A stretch of 64,000 bases of DNA. Origin: an uncultured Chloroflexia bacterium. Its GTDB lineage: Bacteria > Chloroflexota > Limnocylindria > Limnocylindrales > CSP1-4. A model generated the notes under the pieces. That model searched no databases. It was not told the DNA's origin and worked only from the letters and a program-made list of their open reading frames with translations. Below are positions 15,823 through 33,772 of the stretch, piece after piece. The position numbers and the translations under genes are program-made. The stretch covers positions 1,824,001 to 1,888,000 of the forward strand of contig CAWHDR010000001.1 in the NCBI GenBank assembly GCA_963828165.1, given 5' to 3'. Position 1 is the first letter of the stretch. Every line of letters begins with the position of its first letter.

Positions 15823-16366
15823 GAAAGGCCTCCCCGAGGCTGGTGCCGACCGGGTCGGCAAGATGGATGCGAAGCCGGTCGAGCGCCGTCTGGAGCTGCG
15901 CCTTGATCGTGTTCGGGCTCTTCCCGAGCGTGGCGGCGACCTCATCGACCGACTGGTCGGCGTAGTAGCGCAGGATCACGGCGGCGCGCATCTGGATCGG
16001 CAGGCTCGCGATGCCGTCCAGCAGGGCCATTCGCGTCGTGCTGTCGGCACCCAGGTCGCCGGCGGCGGCGCCATCGGGCATGAGCTCGAGGCGCGTCACG
16101 CGCCCCGACCGTCGTTTCACCCCGAGCGCGTGGTTGGTGGCGACGCGCAGGAGCCACGCCCGCAGCGCGCGCTCGTCACGGATGCTGCCGCCGCGTTCGA
16201 ACGCGGTGAGCAACGTCTCGATCACGACGTCCTCGGCCGCAGGACGGTCGCGCAGGATGAGGTAGGCGACGCTCTGGAGCTCGCGCCCGTACGTCTCGAG
16301 CAGGTCTCCGAGTGTCTCCGGTCGACGCCGGCGAATGGCCTCGACGGTCATGGATGCATCCTTCAC
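15815..16366 (-). CDS. ECF RNA polymerase sigma factor (start uncertain)
   Basis: AEDVVIETLL, AWLLRVATN (region 2); LPIQMRAAVILRYYADQSVDEVAATLGKSPNTIKAQL (region 4). Confidence 0.9.
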   Translation of the reverse strand: MKDASMTVEAIRRRRPETLGDLLETYGRELQSVAYLILRDRPAAEDVVIETLLTAFERGGSIRDERALRAWLLRVATNHALGVKRRSGRVTRLELMPDGAAAGDLGADSTTRMALLDGIASLPIQMRAAVILRYYADQSVDEVAATLGKSPNTIKAQLQTALDRLRIHLADPVGTSLGEAFHA

Positions 16367-25563: not shown

Positions 25564-25592
25564 TTGTCGCACTAGAACAAGTGTTCTAATCT
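25564..25592 (+). promoter_or_regulatory. SOS promoter with LexA box upstream of imuA
   Basis: TTGTCG-N17-TAATCT with AGAACAAGTGTTCT (25574-25587, GAAC-N4-GTTC) in the spacer. Confidence 0.85.
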
Positions 25593-25601
25593 AGTCGTCC
25601 G

Positions 25602-26712
25602 ATGACGACCCCTCGTGGCGATGTGGATGCCGCTCTGGCGGGCCTCCAGGCTCGATGGGGAGCGGCAGCTCCGAGGGTCGTGGGGGCACTGGCGTTGGCG
25701 CAGGCGGTGGCCCTCCCCGACGAGCAGCCACGGTACGAGCCGGGCCTCGACGACAGCCGGGTCATCCACACGGGCTTCGCCGCGCTCGATGCGATCCTCG
25801 GGCCCGGAGGCCTCCCGAAGTCGGCCAGCGTCGCGATCCGCGGCGACGGCTCCAGCGGCCGGACGACGCTCTCCCTCCGGGTCGCCGCGGAAGCCCAGGC
25901 GGGGGGCTCGGTCGTGGCCTGGCTCGACCTGTCGCGCAGCTTCGACCCGGTCGAGGCCGTCGCCCGCGGCGTCCGGCTCGAGTGGCTCGTCGTCATCACC
26001 CCGGCCAGCCTGGACGAAGGCTTGTCGATCGCGGGCAGCCTGCTGACGGGTCGGTCGGTCGACATGCTCGTCCTGGACCTGCCCGGCGGTCGGCTGGCGA
26101 AGACGGACAAGCCGGCCAGGGTCGCCGATCGACTCCATCGACTCGCCGCGCTCGCCCGCCGCGCGGAGACCCTGCTCCTGATCCTCGATGCGCCCGGACT
26201 CGCCGGCGGCCTCGCGACCGCGGTCGCCGAGTCGACCGGCATCCGGCTCGAGCTGGCTCGCCGGTCGTGGGTCCGCCTGGGCCGCGATGTCGTCGGCCAG
26301 CGCACCGAGGCGATCGTCGCGCACAACCGCCACGGACCGCCGGGGCGCAAGCGCGACCCTCCGGATCCTCTACGCCGAGGGCGGCGAACGGGACGCCTGT
26401 CTCGCGCTCGACACCCTCCTCATCGAGGGGGCGCCGCTCGGGGCGCCCATACCGGTGCCAATCGGCACCGTCAACCCGAACGAGGCCCCCGATCGAAAGA
26501 CCCACGACCATGCGACGTCTCCACCTCTTCGTCCCGCATCTGCCCCTCCACCTGGCGCGGGCCCGACGCTCCGAGCCCTTCCCGACCGGCCCGCTCGTGC
26601 TCGGCGGTCGGCCGTGGGATCCGGGGCCGGTCATCGACGCCGACCGGACCGCTCGATCGCTGGGCGTCCGGCGCGGCATGCCGCTGGCGAGCGCCCATCG
26701 ACTCGTCCCTGA
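25602..26712 (+). CDS. imuA: ImuA-like degenerate RecA-fold protein (frameshift near 26350)
   Basis: TGFAALDAILGPGGLP, Walker A GDGSSGRTT (K to R), VAWLD..FDP, VDMLVLD; first gene of a LexA-boxed cassette. Confidence 0.75.
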
Positions 26713-27764
26713 GGCGACCTTCATCGAGCCCGATCCCGACGCGGACCGGGTAGCGGCTGAGACCGCGTTCGAGGCGCTCGGCGCGTTCAGCCCGAGCCTG
26801 GTCGGGGAGTGGCGACCCGATGGACGCCGCATTCGGGCTGTTCGAGATGGGGATCGATGGCCTGGGGCCGTTGTGGGGTGCCGAGCCGGTGCTCGTCGAG
26901 CGGGTCAGTTCCGCGTTGCGTGTCGCCCTCCCCGGGGAGCTGACGCCGCGGGCCGGGGTCGCCGGCACGCATTTCGCCGCGACCATCGCCGCGGTCCATG
27001 CCCGTGCCGGCTCGCCGGTCGCCGTCCCACCCGGCGACGAAGCGGCGTTCCTCGCGCCGTACCCGTCCGGCCTCCTGACGACGGACCTCGACGTGCGCGC
27101 TCGATTGACCCGGTTCGGGCTACGCGAGATCGGCGCCGTGGCGGAACTGCCCAGGTCGGCGTTGATCGCCCGGTTCGGGGACGAGGGTGCCCGGCTGCAC
27201 GCCCGGGCGCGTGGTGAGGAGACCGAGCCGTTCCGGGCGCGTCATGCCCCGGAGCGCCTGGCCCTCGCCCTGCCCATCGAGCCACCGGTCGAGGACCTCG
27301 AGCCACTGCGGTTCGTGCTCCACCGGCTCGTGGCCGCGATCACGGCTCAGCTCACGACCCTGGGACTCGCCGCGGACCGCGCGCACCTGACCCTGGAGCT
27401 GGACCTGGCCTTCGCCGCGCGCGGGACATCGCCGCGGATCGAGGTCGAACAGCGCTTCCCGGAGCCCACCGCGGACCCCGAGGCCGTCGAGCGGCTGCTG
27501 TTCGCGCGGCTGGAACGGGAGCCGCCGCCGGCGGCGGTGCAACGGCTGGAGCTGGAGTTACGGGGCACGACCCAGGCCGCTGGCCAGCAACTGCCGTTGT
27601 TCGTGCCACAGGCCGCGCGAACGGCTCGGCTCGGCTGGCAGCTCGCGAGGCTGGCGCTGACCTACGGGGAGGATCGCGTCCGGCGGGTCGCCATCACGGA
27701 CCCGGAGGCGCCACTCCCCGAGACCCGCTGGGCGTGGCGGCCGGTCGGGCTGGAGGGGGAATGA
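26510..27764 (+). CDS. imuB: ImuB-like inactive Y-family polymerase (frameshift near 26815)
   Basis: ARSLGVRRGMPLASA, RFGLREIG, LIARFG, clamp-binding-like QLPLF; no catalytic FF/SxDE motifs. Confidence 0.8.
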
Positions 27765-28258: not shown

Positions 28259-28404
28259 TGCGCCTCCCCCACGGCTGCGCAGGCTCGGGTCTCCACCGCC
28301 CGAGCCGTGTCAGCATAGACGCGCGAGCGTGTTCATGTGTCGCGCCGATGCACCGCGATCGTCGCGCCGACGCACCAGATCCGTGGCCGAGTCGGCGGGA
28401 CGGC

Positions 28405-28908
28405 TCAACCCATCGGACAGGCCGCCCCATATCGGACGACCACGAAGGTCAGACCGCCCATCGGCCGGACCGATGTCTGGATCCGGCAGTCACCCCGACC
28501 GACCGATTCGATGACGAAGCCGCCGTCCTCCAACGGGCCCGAAAGCGACTCCGTCCGCAGCGCCGCGGTCTCGAGCGCGTTCTGCATCCAGCCCGCGATC
28601 TGAGCGGTGTCGTCGTTGTCGACGGCGTAGGTGCCGCTGACCGGTTCCGGGCTGATGTCGTCCGCAACGGTCGACGTCGGGAACCTCGGGAACCCCGGTG
28701 GGAGCTCGTCCCAGATGCGACCCCAGTCGGTCTCGGTCTGGGTCATGGCGGCAGCGGTGGGCTCGACCGACGGCGCCAGGGACGGCCGGTCCATGGGGGT
28801 CGCATTGGTCGTCGAGTCGTGCGTTCCGCAGGCCGCGAACGCCAGGGCGGCGACCAGCATCGCGACGAACGGGAGGGTGGGACGGGAGCGGAGATTCCGC
28901 GTCTGCAT
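28405..28908 (-). CDS. Putative lipoprotein
   Basis: MQTRNLRSRPTLPFVAMLVAALAFAAC lipobox; TAGACT 7 nt before the ATG. Confidence 0.7.
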   Translation of the reverse strand: MQTRNLRSRPTLPFVAMLVAALAFAACGTHDSTTNATPMDRPSLAPSVEPTAAAMTQTETDWGRIWDELPPGFPRFPTSTVADDISPEPVSGTYAVDNDDTAQIAGWMQNALETAALRTESLSGPLEDGGFVIESVGRGDCRIQTSVRPMGGLTFVVVRYGAACPMG

Positions 28909-28917
28909 GCACCCGAG

Positions 28918-29247
28918 TCTAGGCCGAACCGCTGATGCGCCCACCTAGCCCTGGCGACCCTTGACAGACGGCGTACTGTTCGGTCCTGACCGCCGTGTGG
29001 AACACGGCGATCTCGGCGACATGGCGTATAGGCACATCGGCGCCTGTCAAGCCGGACGCGCCCGAAGCGGCTCTTGGGGGAGCCCCTTCGGGCGTCGTCG
29101 ATTCCCGGGCGTGGCAGGACCCCGTCACCCCCAAGCGACGGGGTCCTGCGGGCCAGAGTCCGCTGCTCACCAGCGCTCCGGCGGGTCGGCGCCGACCATC
29201 GCAGTCGTTCGCCGCCTAGATCGTCTCGTGCCCCCAGGCCCCGAGAC
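28918..29247. ncRNA. Candidate structured non-coding RNA, family unknown
   Basis: At least 6 helices found by eye and two adjacent hairpins with complementary loops (TTGGGG / CCCCAA); no convincing ORF. Confidence 0.5.
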
Positions 29248-29256
29248 TTATGAGTG

Positions 29257-29400
29257 CTAGATCGCCGCCGCCTGGACCGCGATGACCGCGGGCAGGAGGA
29301 CGAGGATCAGGAGCATCGCAACCACCACGGCGACACCGCTCCGGAGCGCGGCCATGACGACCGGTCGCAGCGGGTGATCGAGGCGGATGGGTGCGTGCAT
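29257..29400 (-). CDS. 47-aa hydrophobic peptide divergent from dnaE2 (not in ORF track)
   Basis: MHAPIRLDHPLRPVVMAALRSGVAVVVAMLLILVLLPAVIAVQAAAI*; GC3-rich codons; no well-spaced RBS. Confidence 0.55.
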   Translation of the reverse strand: MHAPIRLDHPLRPVVMAALRSGVAVVVAMLLILVLLPAVIAVQAAAI

Positions 29401-29446
29401 GCCGGTGAGACGCCGAACCCCTCGATTGTGTTTCGTGATTCCTACT

Positions 29447-29465
29447 AGAACGTTTGTTCTATACT
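29447..29465 (+). promoter_or_regulatory. LexA box and -10 of dnaE2
   Basis: AGAACGTTTGTTCT (29447-29460) overlapping TATACT (29460-29465). Confidence 0.85.
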
Positions 29466-29504
29466 AGCAGGCCCTGCAAGCCCCGGCCCCCGACCGGAGA
29501 ACCC

Positions 29505-32500
29505 GTGGCCACCATCCCCTACGCCGAGCTCCACGCCCACACCAATTTCTCGTTCCTCGATGGGGCCTCGCCACCGGACGAGCTGGTCGAGCGGGCCGCG
29601 GCGATCGGCCTGGCCGGGTTGGCCGTCACCGACCGCAACGGCCTCTACGGCACCGTCCGTTTCATGGGCGCAGCCGAGGAGATCGGCATCCACGGCATCG
29701 TCGGGACGGAGATCGAGCTGCTCGATGCCGGCGTCTCCGACCCGGCCGGCGTGGTCGTCCCGTCGCGGCGTCAACGGCGACGCGCGCGAACCGCGGCCAC
29801 GCCGACCACGGAGTCGATCGTGGCGGAAGGCCATCCGTCCCGGCCCCGCCCCGAGCGCGCTCGTCTGCCCGGCCACCGCGACCCGGTCAAGGAGGACCTG
29901 CGCGGGATCGGCGAGCGGGCGCGTGGCCCGCATCTCGTGCTGCTGGCCCGCTCGGCGACAGGCTGGCGGAGCCTGTCGCGACTCATCTCCCGCGCGAACC
30001 TGGCCGGGACCAAGGGCGTGCCGCGCTTCCGCCAGGCCCTCCTCGACGAGCATCACGAAGGCCTCGTGGCGCTGTCGGGTTGTCGCCACGGGGAGATCGC
30101 GCGTCGTCTGCGGGTGGGCGATCGAGCGGGGGCCCGGGCGGTCGCGGAGCGCTACGCGACGCTGTTCGGGCGTGGCGACGATCCCGCCTCGAGCGGCTTC
30201 TTCATCGAGCTCTCGCATCACCTGCTGCCCGACGACGACTGGCTTGTGACGGAGTCGGCGGCGCTCGCCGCCGAGCTCGGACTGCCGGTCGTCGTCACCA
30301 ACGATGTCCACTACGCCACGCCCGACGATCGAGAGCTGCACGACGTCCTCACCGCGATCAAGCATGGCCGGACGCTCGAGACGCTCGCCGACCTGCGTCG
30401 GCCGGACGGCGAGTCGCACCTCAAGACAGGCGACGAGCTGGCGGCGCTCGGCGCGTCATTCGACCCGGAGCCGGCGCGGGCGTGGCGAGAGGGGATCGCC
30501 ACGTCGGTCGAGCTGGCGGCGTCGTGCACGGTCGATCTCGGCTTCGAGCAGTACCGCTTCCCGGGCTTCCCGGTGCCCAAGGGCGAGACCCCGTTCTCGT
30601 ATCTCGTCGAGTTGTGCCAGGCCGGCGCCCGGAAGCGCTATCACCCGCTGACCTCGGCCGTCGTCAAGCGGCTCGCCCACGAGCTCGATGTGATCGAGCG
30701 GGCCGGCCTCGCCGAGTTCTTCCTGATCTGCTGGGACCTGATGCGGTTCGCCAGGGAGCAGGGGATCCCGGCCCAGGGTCGGGGCAGCGCGGCGAGCTCG
30801 ATCGTGGCCTACACCCTCGGGATCAGCCGGGTCGAGCCGATCGGGCACAACCTGCTTTTCGAGCGGTTCATCAACGAGGGTCGGACGACCTATCCGGACG
30901 TCGATATCGACTTCAGCTCGGCACGAAGGGAGGAGGTCATCCAGTACGTCTACAACCGCTACGGACCGGAGCACACGGGGATGGTCTGCAACCTCGTGAC
31001 CTACCGAGCGCGCTCGGCGGTTCGCGAGGTCGGGGTGGCACTCGGGTTCCCGCGGCCGCTCGTCGATCGGGTCGCCAAGGCGCTCGAGACCTACGACTCG
31101 GTCATGGTCCGGCGCGACCTGGAGGCGGACGGCGGCTTTGCCGAGTTCTTCAAGCGGACGGGCGAAGGGGAACCAGCCGAAGCGCTGGCGGCGATGGAGG
31201 CCGAAGGACATGGCCTGGTCGACAGGATGGGCCAGCTCAACACCCGCATCCCGCTCGTCGGGAAGGTGCCGCCATGGCGCCAGCCGCAGGCGCCGGCGGA
31301 CCCGGATGCGCCGAAGCCGTTCGCCTGGCTGCGCGACCTCGAAGGGGACGAGCGGCCGCGGGTGTCGACCCGGCCGCGGGTGTCGACCCGGCCGCGGCCG
31401 GGTTTCGCGACGATCCGCTGGCGCCGCGGACGGCGATCCGGGGTGGCGGCACGTCCGGTGACGAGGGTGGGCCCGGCGACACGCCGGCGAGCGTCGCCTG
31501 GCTGCGCGCGGGGAAGGGAACCGGGTACGCGGAGGAGCGCGATCGCCTCGTGCCGCCGACGCTCGTCGAGGGTCGAGCCATCGATCCGGAGAGTGGCCAG
31601 GTCGAGCCGCCGCCGCGCCAGACCGACCGGCTGGGCAGGCCCACTCGCTGGGATCCGCCGCCGAACGCTCCGAGGTCCAAGGCGGAGCCCCGCGACGCCA
31701 TTGGCCTGAGGATTCCGCCTTCCCCGCCAGCGGCGGCGATGGGTCGGGGTGGGTCGGCGGGTCAGTCGTCGGTCGCTCGCATCGAGCCCGAGGCGCCGCC
31801 GCAGGCCCGCGGCGGTTCCACGGTCGGCCTCAGCCATTGGGAGCGCTGGCTGGAATTCTGCGCTCGGATCGATGGCTTCCCGCGCCATCTCTCGATCCAC
31901 AGCGGCGGCATGCTCGTGACGGCGGCCCCGCTCATCGACATCGCGCCGCTGGAACGGGCGACGATGCCGGATCGCGTCGTCGTCCAGTTCGACAAGCGCG
32001 ATGTCGAGACGCTCAAGCTGATCAAGCTCGACCTGCTCGGCCTGGGGATGCTGGCCGCGATGGACGAGACGCTCCAGCTCATCGAGCACGACTGCGCGGT
32101 CTGTCTCGATCTCGATCGGCTGCCGGAGGACGTGCCCGAGGTCTTCGAGATGCTCCAGGCGGCCGACACGGTCGGCGTCTTCCAGGTCGAGAGCCGGGCG
32201 CAGATGCAGACGCTGCCGAAGTCGCGGCCGCACAACCTCGACGACCTCGTGGTCGAGGTCGCGATCATCCGCCCCGGCCCGATCCAGGGCAACGCCGTCC
32301 ACCCGTACCTGCGGCGCAAGCAGGGCCTGGAGCCCGTGACGTACCTCCATCCGTCGCTGGAGCCGGTGCTGAAGGACTCGATGGGCGTGATCCTCTACCA
32401 GGAGCAGGTCATGCGCATCGCGATCGAGGTCGCGGGGTTCAGCCCGGCCGAATTGGACGGGTTCCGCCGCGCGATGGGGACGTGGCGCTCGACCCGGGAG

Positions 32501-33772
32501 ATGGAGAAGCTCCACCAGCAGTTCGTGGAGGGCGCTCTCCGGCAGCCCGGCATGACCGAGGAGGACGCCGAGGAGCTCTTCCGCCAGGTCGCGGCGTTCG
32601 CGAGCTTCGGGTTCGCGAAGTCACATGCCGCGGCCTTCGCGCGGACGGCCTACGAGTCGGCCTTCCTGAAGCTGTTCTACCCGGCGCAGTTCCTCGTCGG
32701 GCTCATCAACGCGCAGCCGATGGGCTTCTACCCGGTCGAGGTGCTCGTCAACGACGCGAAGCGCCACGGCGTGGCCGTTCTGCCCGTGGACATCAACGGC
32801 TCGTCGTACAAGACCACGACCGAATGGGTGGGCCGGCCGGGCGAGCCGCTGCCGCCCGGTGTCGGGATCGAGGCACGACCGGAGCCCGTCGTCTCGTCCG
32901 CATGCGTGAACCCGTCCGTGGCTGCGCGCGAGGTCTGGACGCCGGAGGTGACGATCGGCTGGGGCGTTCGCCTCGGGCTGCAGCTCGTGAAGGGCATCGG
33001 CGAGCAGCACGAGGCGCTGCTGGACGCCGAGCGGGAGCGCGGGCCGTATCGGAGCCTGGCCGATGTCGTGGAGCGGACCGGGCTGCCTGAGGAGGTACTT
33101 GAGCGGCTCATCCGGAGCGGGGCGATGGATTCGCTGGGTCGACCGCGGCGGGAGCTGTTGTGGCAGTTGCGGGAGGTGGCCGGGGCGTCACGAGGTCGCG
33201 TGGACGGCCGCGCGCTGCGGGCGCTGGGTCGGGCGGCCGGCAAGAAAGGCGCGGCCGCGGGCAGGCCGATGGACCTGCGATTGCCGGCGACGGACGCGCC
33301 GGCACTCCCCGCGATCACCGAGTCGGAGCGGATCGGCGATGCCTACGCGGTCCTCGGCGTGGATGCCCGTCGACAGGTCGTGGGGCTGTTCCGGCCGGCG
33401 CTGGATCGGCTGGGTGCCGTGACGAATGCCGCCCTCGCCGATCGTCGTCCGGGGCACGTCCGGGTGGGGGGCCTGGTCGTGACCCGCCAGCATCCGATGA
33501 CGGCCAAGGGCACGGTCTTCCTCGCCCTGGAAGACGAGACGGGGATGGTCAACGTAACGCTCTGGCCAAGCACGTGGGAGCGGCTGCGCGGGGTCGTGCG
33601 GCGGCACGCGTTGTTGCTGGTGGACGGAGAGCTGCAGCGCGAGGGGATGGTCGTGAACCTCGTCGCGCACGAGATCCGGGCACTCCCCGAGGTGGCCGCC
33701 GAGGCCGGTGGGCCGGAACGGCCGGGCGGCGTCCGCCAGATGGGTCACGCCGGGATGCGGCGTCTCGGCTGA
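29505..33772 (+). CDS. dnaE2: Error-prone DNA polymerase DnaE2/ImuC (frameshift near 31340-31405)
   Basis: ELHAHTNFSFLDG, GRGSAASS, LFERF, PDVDIDF, GFPRHLSIHSGG, KLDLLGLGML, NAQPMGFY, RQHPMTAKGTVFLALEDETG; LexA box upstream. Confidence 0.93.
31353..31397 (+). repeat. 18-nt tandem repeat, 2.5 copies, inside the dnaE2 insertion
   Basis: CGGCCGCGGGTGTCGACC twice, then CGGCCGCGG. Confidence 0.9.

Follow-up and report, generated by a model that had tools for sequence, protein, structure and literature searches.

Dual-function RNAs of bacteria combine a short open reading frame (ORF) with conserved hairpins whose loop sequences are kept. Examples are provided by RNAIII/hld of Staphylococcus aureus, AzuCR and SgrS/SgrT of Escherichia coli, and SR1 of Bacillus subtilis; in two cases the encoded peptide is membrane-active. 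Here we describe a locus of comparable architecture from a bacterium of the Limnocylindria-type Chloroflexota, an uncultured group abundant in soil. The window, that is, the whole analyzed stretch of 64,000 nucleotides (nt) of contig CAWHDR010000001.1, contains a structured RNA domain of ~145 nt that directly follows a small ORF for a single-transmembrane peptide of 47 amino acids (aa); ORF and RNA are called the unit below. As in dual-function RNAs, one transcript would contain both the short ORF and the conserved hairpins. Unlike in these RNAs, the loops are G-rich (UGGGGG) and not C-rich, the ORF occupies the extreme 5' end of a probably leaderless transcript, and there is no homology.

Other bacterial small RNAs (sRNAs) share some traits with this locus. 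The 6C RNA of Actinobacteria (RF01066), linked to the SOS response in Corynebacterium, also has GC-rich hairpins with homopolymer loops in a high-G+C organism. However, 6C RNA is ~75 nt long and its loops are C-rich, whereas the loops observed here are G-rich on the transcribed strand, and no match to RF01066 was found in the region or elsewhere in the genome (88% complete). MicA, RybB, and MicL of E. coli are non-coding, Hfq-dependent proteobacterial RNAs driven by an envelope-stress sigma factor, and MicL acts on a lipoprotein mRNA. In the locus described here, a lipoprotein gene is the conserved neighbor of the unit, and the putative promoter would be of the extracytoplasmic function (ECF) sigma type.

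Similar in gene content are tisB/istR-1 and dinQ/agrB of E. coli, each with a small single-transmembrane peptide, a structured transcript, and an adjoining LexA box (PMC3567139, PMC8145889, PMC5066626). In tisB and dinQ, the regulatory structure belongs to the 5' untranslated region and the antitoxin is an adjacent antisense or divergent sRNA, whereas in the locus studied here the structure is 3' of the ORF. The unit further differs in having an ECF-like motif and no clustered TANNNT promoter box on the opposite strand, and 14 of 55 loci lack the LexA box. At the sequence level, it is not similar to tisB or dinQ. Finally, orphan structured RNA motifs revealed by comparative genomics and kept in Rfam (e.g., PMC2864571, PMC11109978) resemble the present RNA in the kind of evidence behind them: a conserved intergenic block whose helices covary, which is restricted to few taxa and has constant gene neighbors. 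Our literature search yielded no described non-coding RNA for Limnocylindria-type Chloroflexota, nothing linking Limnocylindria with LexA, and nothing on an element of this kind.

By analogy, the closest functional models for the RNA would be small-protein RNAs of the dual-function type and the structured transcripts of membrane toxins under LexA control. We class it with the orphan structured domains of mRNAs or sRNAs, a known general kind of RNA, within which it forms a new family. With ~145 nt, four helices, strong covariation, and a tiny membrane-protein gene joined to it, the family is a candidate for Rfam, and the unit offers an entry point to small proteins, leaderless expression, and RNA-based control in Chloroflexota.

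The conserved RNA domain

The RNA domain consists of four hairpin units which follow each other 5' to 3' on the minus strand in the order P5, P3/P4, P2, and P1 (Table 1). Compensatory changes indicate that it is a genuine, previously undescribed structured RNA. In the first alignment, of 23 sequences from the genus, 13 of 44 pairs had compensatory changes; seven of 30 genus sequences had been dropped because of an insertion in P1. A covariance model was built from this alignment and then run over 55 loci from 55 genomes, with L001, L003, and L037 (duplicates), L041 (unpublished), and L008 omitted. The resulting model-fitted alignment has 63 rows, 55 strong matches and 8 weak secondary ones; 96.4% of its cells are paired and 33 of the 44 pairs are changed on both sides. 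None of 500 shuffles reached this value, and partners slid out of register were 35-52% paired. Since the 63-row alignment leans towards the model, the count was repeated with MAFFT alone, without fitting to the model, for 40 whole units taken from the 53 with the upstream motif described below. Here 96.5% of the cells in 42 pairs are paired, and 26 pairs are changed on both sides. Again no shuffle out of 500 scored as high, and sliding the partners by 1-3 columns gave 36-52% paired cells and 5-10 double-change pairs.

Table 1. Features of the locus in window coordinates
Feature	Position	Strand	Sequence or remark
Conserved structured RNA domain, ~145 nt	29106..29251	-	covariance model R1 match at 128 bits (G000:C1:1853106-1853251)
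P5 hairpin	29223..29247	-	near-invariant apical sequence GCCUGGGGGC
P3/P4 two-tier hairpin	29188..29213	-	loop (U/C)GCGAUG
P2 hairpin	29152..29182	-	loop block GGUGAGC
P1 terminal hairpin (= hairpin B)	29114..29149	-	long, GC-rich; 13-bp perfect stem in this genome; loop UUGGGGG; presumed 3' end or terminator
Small ORF, 47 aa	29257..29400	-	single-transmembrane peptide MHAPIRLDHPLRPVVMAALRSGVAVVVAMLLILVLLPAVIAVQAAAI (translation)
Two-block motif GAAAC-N17-CGTC	29409..29434	-	ends 8 nt before ATG; read as ECF-sigma-type promoter
LexA box	29446..29461	.	TAGAACGTTTGTTCTA; abuts dnaE2 -10 box
Hairpin-rich spacer	28922..29105	.	hairpin A, two internal helices, most of closing-helix 5' arm
Lipoprotein gene, 167 aa	28405..28908	-	lipobox LAFAAC; own -10 box TAGACT at 28916-28921
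Closing helix	28918-28929 with 29207-29220		TCTAGGCCGAAC with GTTCGCCGCCTAGA; present in sequence
Internal helix 1	28960-67/29044-51		CTTGACAG/CTGTCAAG; present in sequence
Internal helix 2	28991-98/29002-09		CGCCGTGT/ACACGGCG; present in sequence
Hairpin A			loop TTGGGG; inside genome-specific spacer

P5 has 10 pairs with 98.0% of cells paired, one of them being U-G in 25 and C-G in 10 of 40 sequences, and P1 has 15 consensus pairs, 98.5% paired and 11 of them changed on both sides. The 40-unit alignment provides further examples: pair 280/291 of P4 is AU in 25 and GC in 12 sequences, pair 272/300 of P3 is GC in 30 and AU in 10, and pair 317/331 of P2 occurs as CG (13), GC (13), and AU (12). 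GGTGAGC in the P2 loop is invariant in all 55 strong rows. The block GCCUGGGGG at the top of P5 is also invariant, and GCGAUG of P4 and UUGGGGG of P1 are nearly so. The RNA is the best-conserved part of the locus. At seven of 30 genus loci (L014, L016, L020, and L025-L028), P1 contains an insertion of ~50 nt that forms an extra hairpin with a UGGGGG-type loop, the closing stem being retained.

Wobble pairs indicate the transcribed strand, which had been left open in the preliminary description of the region. Over 2382 cells, 2071 Watson-Crick, 237 G-U, and 18 A-C combinations were counted. Because G-U far outnumbers A-C, which would be G-U on the plus strand, the RNA is assigned to the minus strand; the share of paired cells is 96.9% when read as minus and 87.7% when read as plus.

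Two candidate interactions of the domain with the leader of the ORF were considered and rejected. The P2 loop sequence GGUGAG is perfectly complementary to CUCACC before the ATG in this genome, but at least five pairs are seen in only ~11 of 40 relatives (by eye). Pairing of CGUCUC in the leader with the 3' arm of P5 is not upheld either, as the changes in P5 are unmatched in the leader.

The region folds far better than expected by chance. A 340-nt stretch yields -181.6 kcal/mol (z -5.27) on the plus and -195.4 kcal/mol (z -5.45) on the minus strand, and on both strands it beats all 100 dinucleotide-preserving shuffles. Its two parts taken alone are comparable, with z -3.52 for 29104-29252 and z -4.23 for 28927-29103 and 0 of 200 shuffles as good in each case. 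Against the 4227 models of Rfam 15, the only matches in the window at the gathering score are two tRNAs, both outside the region. At E<=10 the region itself gives only chance matches, to mir-3127 (17.8 bits, cut-off 82) and Chloroflexi-1 (17.1 bits, cut-off 80).

The preliminary description, based on this one sequence, had proposed an unrecognized structured RNA of ~300 nt in the SOS mutagenesis locus, between imuB and dnaE2, closed by a long helix and containing kissing hairpin loops A and B. Its central idea stands, in that a covarying RNA without an Rfam match is present, and all the helices listed there exist in the sequence. The size and boundaries do not. Covariation in relatives holds for 29106-29251, and for 28922-29105 no counterpart was found at this place in 45 other genomes of the genus. 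The flagged 330 nt are therefore a composite of two unrelated parts and not one element: less than half is conserved RNA, and the remainder is a hairpin-rich spacer of this genome only. Among the proposed hairpins, B (our P1) and the one at 29223-29247 (our P5) are conserved and covarying, whereas hairpin A, the internal helices, and a hairpin at 29184-29197 are not. The last competes with conserved P4; none of its six pairs shows a compensatory change, and one has become C-A in 12 of 40 sequences. The same change is compensated in P4. The competing hairpin is unsupported.

The RNA has a narrow distribution. The region is single-copy in the 3.3-Mb genome (69.6% G+C). A DNA search of 60 relatives gave matches in 33 of 36 other genomes of the genus, only over 29097-29253 (positions 189-345 of the query), and none in the 24 genomes of a second family. 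In one Limnocylindria-type family, matches to the covariance model occur in 65 of 151 genomes, from 23 of 49 genera, with about one copy each; these counts include the genome of the window and the unpublished genome G140. In a class-wide sample it was found in 21 of 44 genomes of the same family and in none of 106 genomes of four sister families. All these values are lower bounds, as strict filters miss divergent copies. With the filters off, such copies were recovered directly before the lipoprotein gene in four of 14 regions from genera scored as negative (54.7, 42.3, 37.9, and 27.9 bits). The genomes are related metagenome-assembled genomes of 53-97% completeness and do not provide independent counts. 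Matches to the P1 hairpin motif, found in 24 of 41 genus genomes, are confined to a single place in each genome or, rarely, to two nearby places.

A strict two-block DNA pattern matched 113 stretches in public genomes. Among the 80 titled matches listed, almost all are soil metagenome-assembled genomes titled Chloroflexota, Candidatus Limnocylindrales, or Limnocylindria. The matches L082, L094, L096, L107, L124, L125, L139, and L143 carry other titles (Acidobacteriota, Thermomicrobiales, Patescibacteria, Rickettsiales, Gammaproteobacteria, Solirubrobacterales, Methylomirabilota, Gemmatimonadales). Mislabelled or mis-binned contigs are a more likely explanation for these titles than transfer.

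The small ORF and its regulatory context

At each of the 55 loci, the RNA is preceded, at a distance of 4-22 nt, by the end of an open frame whose tail is hydrophobic. The 47-aa peptide has one hydrophobic stretch of ~25 residues, which is kept in 50 aligned homologs; the 50 ORFs extracted by rule encode 39-49 aa with a basic N-terminus and the motif LLILVLLPAxLAxQAA. The entropy at the three codon positions (1.03/0.76/1.24) follows a coding-type pattern. Public protein sets contain 44 predicted homologs, mostly of 47 aa and named 'hypothetical protein', and a search of the protein against Pfam and NCBIfam returned no family match. Between the stop codon and P5 lies a conserved block ACCAC(A), at 29252-29256 here and also present in relatives. 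Given this block and the spacing of 4-9 nt at most loci, a ribosome that terminates at the stop codon would extend into P5.

The ORF and the RNA appear to have no separate promoters of the TANNNT type. Across the 55 loci, bins -190 to +110 relative to the RNA start contain six sense and four antisense TANNNT boxes, all scattered; this tally omits six sense boxes in bin 0, taken as stop-codon context. Just after P1, in comparison, 20 such boxes are found. The near-absence of TANNNT within the ORF and the RNA argues for their co-transcription, and the near-absence on the opposite strand argues against a cis-antisense RNA made from a promoter of that type.

Upstream of the ORF, the pattern G(A/C)AAC-N-CGTC is found at 53 of 55 loci, with a spacer of exactly 17 nt in 51 of the 53 and a distance of 8 nt to the start codon in 42. 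The spacer sequence itself is freely variable. A structural role of the leader was also considered, in the form of a hairpin conserved within the 38 nt that precede the ATG, and rejected: 40 leader folds share no structure and the consensus fold of the whole unit places no pairs there. With their spacing fixed and the sequence between them variable, the two blocks are read as promoter boxes, implying a leaderless mRNA. This agrees with promoters of the ECF type, described with AAC in the -35 element, CGT(C/A) in the -10 element, and spacers of 14-17 bp (PMC5758882).

The LexA box stands 11-13 nt upstream of the GAAAC block and overlaps by two bases the -10 box TATACT (29460-29465, plus strand) of the divergent dnaE2 gene. 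Its core GAAC-N4-GTTC, a LexA motif documented in PMC3323433, is also present before the lexA gene of this genome and before imuA'. An exact box is found at 41 of 55 loci and dnaE2 as the divergent neighbor at 38; 14 loci have neither, and at six of these 14 a family-18 glycosyl hydrolase gene is located upstream instead. The tie to SOS genes is thus a frequent neighborhood, seen at about three quarters of the loci, and not a defining trait. In five relatives, the LexA box is placed between TTGAC(A/G) and a CATATT-like box on the strand of the small ORF.

Downstream of the RNA, a homolog of the lipoprotein gene is found on the same strand at 41 of 55 loci. The family is restricted to Chloroflexota, and its protein clusters are named only 'hypothetical protein' or 'lipoprotein'. 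At 29 of the 41 loci, TANNNT lies 5-8 nt before an in-frame start of the gene, compared with 2 of 82 control frames. With the box so close to the start, the gene is read as leaderless and as having its own promoter after P1. In several relatives, the lipoprotein start and the motif GAGTCTAG are 11-30 nt from hairpin B, and the -10 box of the gene likewise follows P1 by 11-30 nt in relatives. In the genome of the window, the spacer forms an insertion of ~180 nt between P1 and the lipoprotein promoter. Searched alone in 45 other genomes of the genus, it has no syntenic match; the matches elsewhere are of 19-47 nt only (E 1.5e-7 to 0.01), on other contigs or far away.

Expression data were available as assembled soil metatranscriptome contigs, which carry no information on strand or ends. 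They come from close relatives, mostly 90-99% alike, and the matched shares of the stretch are small (0.05-0.14). Some contigs extend from the ORF into the 5' part of the RNA. Record 5 of library X1 covers 29161-29334; record 11 of X11 covers 29161-29444 at depth 18, and X11 has no cover on either neighboring gene. Libraries X1 and X12 show identical contigs and may be one data set. The bridging contigs are a weak hint of co-transcription. Four runs give no cover in the bins at 28911-29004 and only a 34-nt partial match in 29005-29098, which is uninformative on transcription of the spacer.

Proposed function and alternative explanations

The explanation that we favor, with a probability of roughly 0.55, is that the RNA is a structured 3' domain of the small-protein transcript, in which P1 ends the unit and insulates the lipoprotein promoter, and the loops are sites for a partner. 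Transcription would most likely start at or just before the ATG from the ECF-sigma-type promoter (GAAAC-N17-CGTC-N8-ATG), pass the 47-aa ORF (29400 to 29257), and then proceed through P5, P3/P4, P2, and P1. The transcript would end at P1 or be trimmed back to it; its predicted length is ~295 nt if leaderless and greater if leadered. Because P1 closes the unit just before the lipoprotein -10 box, it would shield that promoter and protect the 3' end of the RNA. The invariant blocks GCCUGGGGGC, GGUGAGC, GCGAUG, and UUGGGGG are putative recognition sites for a protein or a C-rich RNA. The transcript would then be both the messenger for a small membrane protein and a putative regulatory or scaffolding RNA. 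Processing of its 3' end to a free RNA is compatible with this explanation.

Several observations weigh against it. No U-tract follows P1, which continues into CCACGCCCGG, and a terminator scan of 28300-29700 called no site, as did a simple sigma-70 promoter scan of the same interval; terminators without a U-tract exist in high-G+C bacteria. None of 32 ECF-type sigma genes above the cut-off carries the motif 250-1000 nt upstream of its region-4 match, and GAAAC-N17-CGTC occurs 14 times genome-wide versus 4 for the reversed control, with no obvious regulon. No binding partner was found. If the RNA served only for stabilization and termination, its helices would be accounted for but its invariant loops would not. 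Two contigs from the RNA libraries reach 29444 and 29455; they span the proposed promoter and extend to 44-55 nt before the ATG. A purely leaderless start accounts for this less well than a longer, leadered transcript or contamination by DNA. The contigs lack strand and transcript ends, and carry-over of DNA into RNA libraries is possible.

A bifunctional envelope-stress RNA, with a leaderless mRNA for a tail-anchored peptide and UGGGGG/GGUGAGC loops serving as decoy or scaffold, is unlikely. The 3' domain would display two to four UGGGGG loops and the invariant GGUGAGC loop, and these, like sponges of the CsrB/RsmZ type, would titrate an RNA-binding protein, a C-rich RNA, or 16S rRNA at its anti-Shine-Dalgarno end. 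Its position would couple the unit to the lipoprotein gene and, in most genomes, to SOS-controlled dnaE2. A sponge for 6C RNA was rejected as a candidate, since RF01066 was not found in the 88% complete genome.

The remaining explanations differ in what they take to be the functional entity. In an SOS-controlled module similar to type I toxin-antitoxin systems, the 47-aa peptide would be a putative LexA-repressed membrane toxin of the TisB/DinQ type, and the RNA would be the control domain of its mRNA, acting through folding, stability, or docking of an antitoxin RNA. The small single-transmembrane product fits this idea, and so does the LexA box, which lies 11-13 nt upstream of the motif of the unit, is exact at 41 of 55 loci, and recurs before lexA and imuA'. 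LexA-controlled single-transmembrane toxins with heavily structured mRNAs are described for DinQ (PMC3567139, PMC5066626) and TisB (PMC8145889) and serve as precedents. Nevertheless, we regard the module as rather unlikely. Only four scattered opposite-strand TANNNT boxes were counted in 55 loci, other promoters being untested and a trans antitoxin not searched for, and the asymmetry of G-U pairs shows selection on the sense strand. The 14 loci without the LexA box and dnaE2 do not agree with SOS control; where the box and dnaE2 occur together, the box always abuts the -10 box of that gene, and the unit has its own ECF-like motif. The unit is also single-copy and vertically conserved, not patchy or multi-copy. 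The lipoprotein gene provides another possible target: the RNA could be its cis-regulatory leader, a riboswitch or attenuator in which P1 would serve as expression platform and the small ORF would encode a leader peptide. The gene is downstream on the same strand at 41 of 55 loci, P1 ends 11-30 nt before its start in many genera, and the divergent copies recovered from genera negative in the filtered search directly precede it. This is quite unlikely, as TANNNT before the gene (29 of 41 loci versus 2 of 82 control frames) implies a leaderless lipoprotein mRNA that would not contain the RNA. Moreover, the distance between RNA and gene ranges from ~10 to ~1280 nt, with other genes or the 180-nt insertion between them, and no alternative pairing with P1 was seen. 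The RNA also occurs without a detectable lipoprotein gene, in g28 (RNA in 4 of 6, gene in 0 of 6) and g13 (RNA in 2 of 2, gene in 0 of 2).

Invariant loops in the best-conserved part of the locus, together with the additional UGGGGG-loop hairpins that some lineages have inside P1, could instead point to a free-standing sRNA that acts in trans through its G-rich loops, is made from its own promoter in or after the ORF or by 3' processing, and has the ORF as a mere neighbor. Such independence is doubtful in view of the ORF-RNA distance, fixed in 55 of 55 loci, the lack of a -10-like box between the ORF start and the RNA, and the contigs that bridge the junction. The ~300-nt RNA of the preliminary description is highly improbable. 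The helices and the A-B loop complementarity over 6-8 nt are real in this sequence, and the minimum-energy fold of the plus strand uses the closing helix. However, the spacer with hairpin A and most of the 5' arm of that helix is missing in 45 of 45 other genus genomes searched and in the closest relatives (93% and 90% identical in the RNA). With hairpin A absent there, the loop pairing has no counterpart in relatives. The remainder of the 5' arm shares positions with the lipoprotein -10 box and the 3' arm with conserved P3, and the consensus structure closes locally without this helix. The element is also not confined to the imuB-dnaE2 intergenic region, since at 14 of 55 loci the unit lies away from dnaE2 and has no LexA box. 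The first reading, a kissing-loop RNA of 300 nt belonging to the mutagenesis locus, is corrected accordingly. Hardly credible, finally, is a DNA-level repeat, such as palindromes of the repetitive extragenic palindromic (REP) or miniature inverted-repeat transposable element (MITE) type, or a set of plain GC-rich terminators. The hairpins are indeed GC-rich and palindromic, and a few genomes have a second P1-like hairpin within ~2 kb. The preliminary description had named a REP repeat as an outcome that would refute it; the single copy in the genome and the P1 motif at one place, rarely two, in the 24 of 41 matching genomes do not fit such a repeat, and the compensatory changes and G-U bias point to selection at the RNA level.

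Neighboring genes and additional copies

The genome contains 67 GAAC-N4-GTTC sites, with ~26 expected from base composition. The box of the lexA gene itself is at C1:1380606, and a second LexA box within the window, CTAGAACAAGTGTTCTAA at 25571-25590, stands ~15 nt before the imuA' ORF (25602). Where ~100 nt separate the LexA box from the small ORF (L012, L018, L022-L028, L035-L045, and others), a further conserved motif, (C)GGACGAAATTCCCAYCG-like, is found ~20-35 nt upstream of the GAAAC block; it may bind a regulator or belong to a second promoter. An ECF-type sigma gene, detected at the Sigma70_r4_2 cut-off, is encoded at 15872-16030 on the minus strand, ~13 kb from the unit, and GAAAC-N17-CGTC is not upstream of it.

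Both mutagenesis genes of the locus are split over two frames, imuB at 25655-27217 and 26820-27764 and dnaE2 at 29454-31709 and 30080-33772. Within dnaE2, ~670 nt interrupt the match to the Pfam family DNA_pol3_alpha, which stops at profile position 192 and resumes at 193; a 15-nt tandem duplication (PRVSTRPRVSTRP) lies in the interruption. These breaks could be real frameshifts or insertions, or indel errors of long-read assembly.

Outside the window, at G000:C1:2495622-2495655, this genome has a hairpin similar to hairpin A, with a perfect 14-bp stem and the loop TTGGGG, and this may be a recurrent terminator shape in the genome. Weak second copies of the RNA, or of P1 alone, are located 0.1-1.8 kb from the main copy on the same strand (L025:2299-2410, L028:282-445, G311:C3:255538-255668, G024:C2:240733-240763, G022:C11:163066-163095). 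At L021, a weak second copy lies downstream of another transmembrane ORF, of 51 aa, and upstream of a further lipoprotein-like gene. These weak copies suggest local duplication of the unit.

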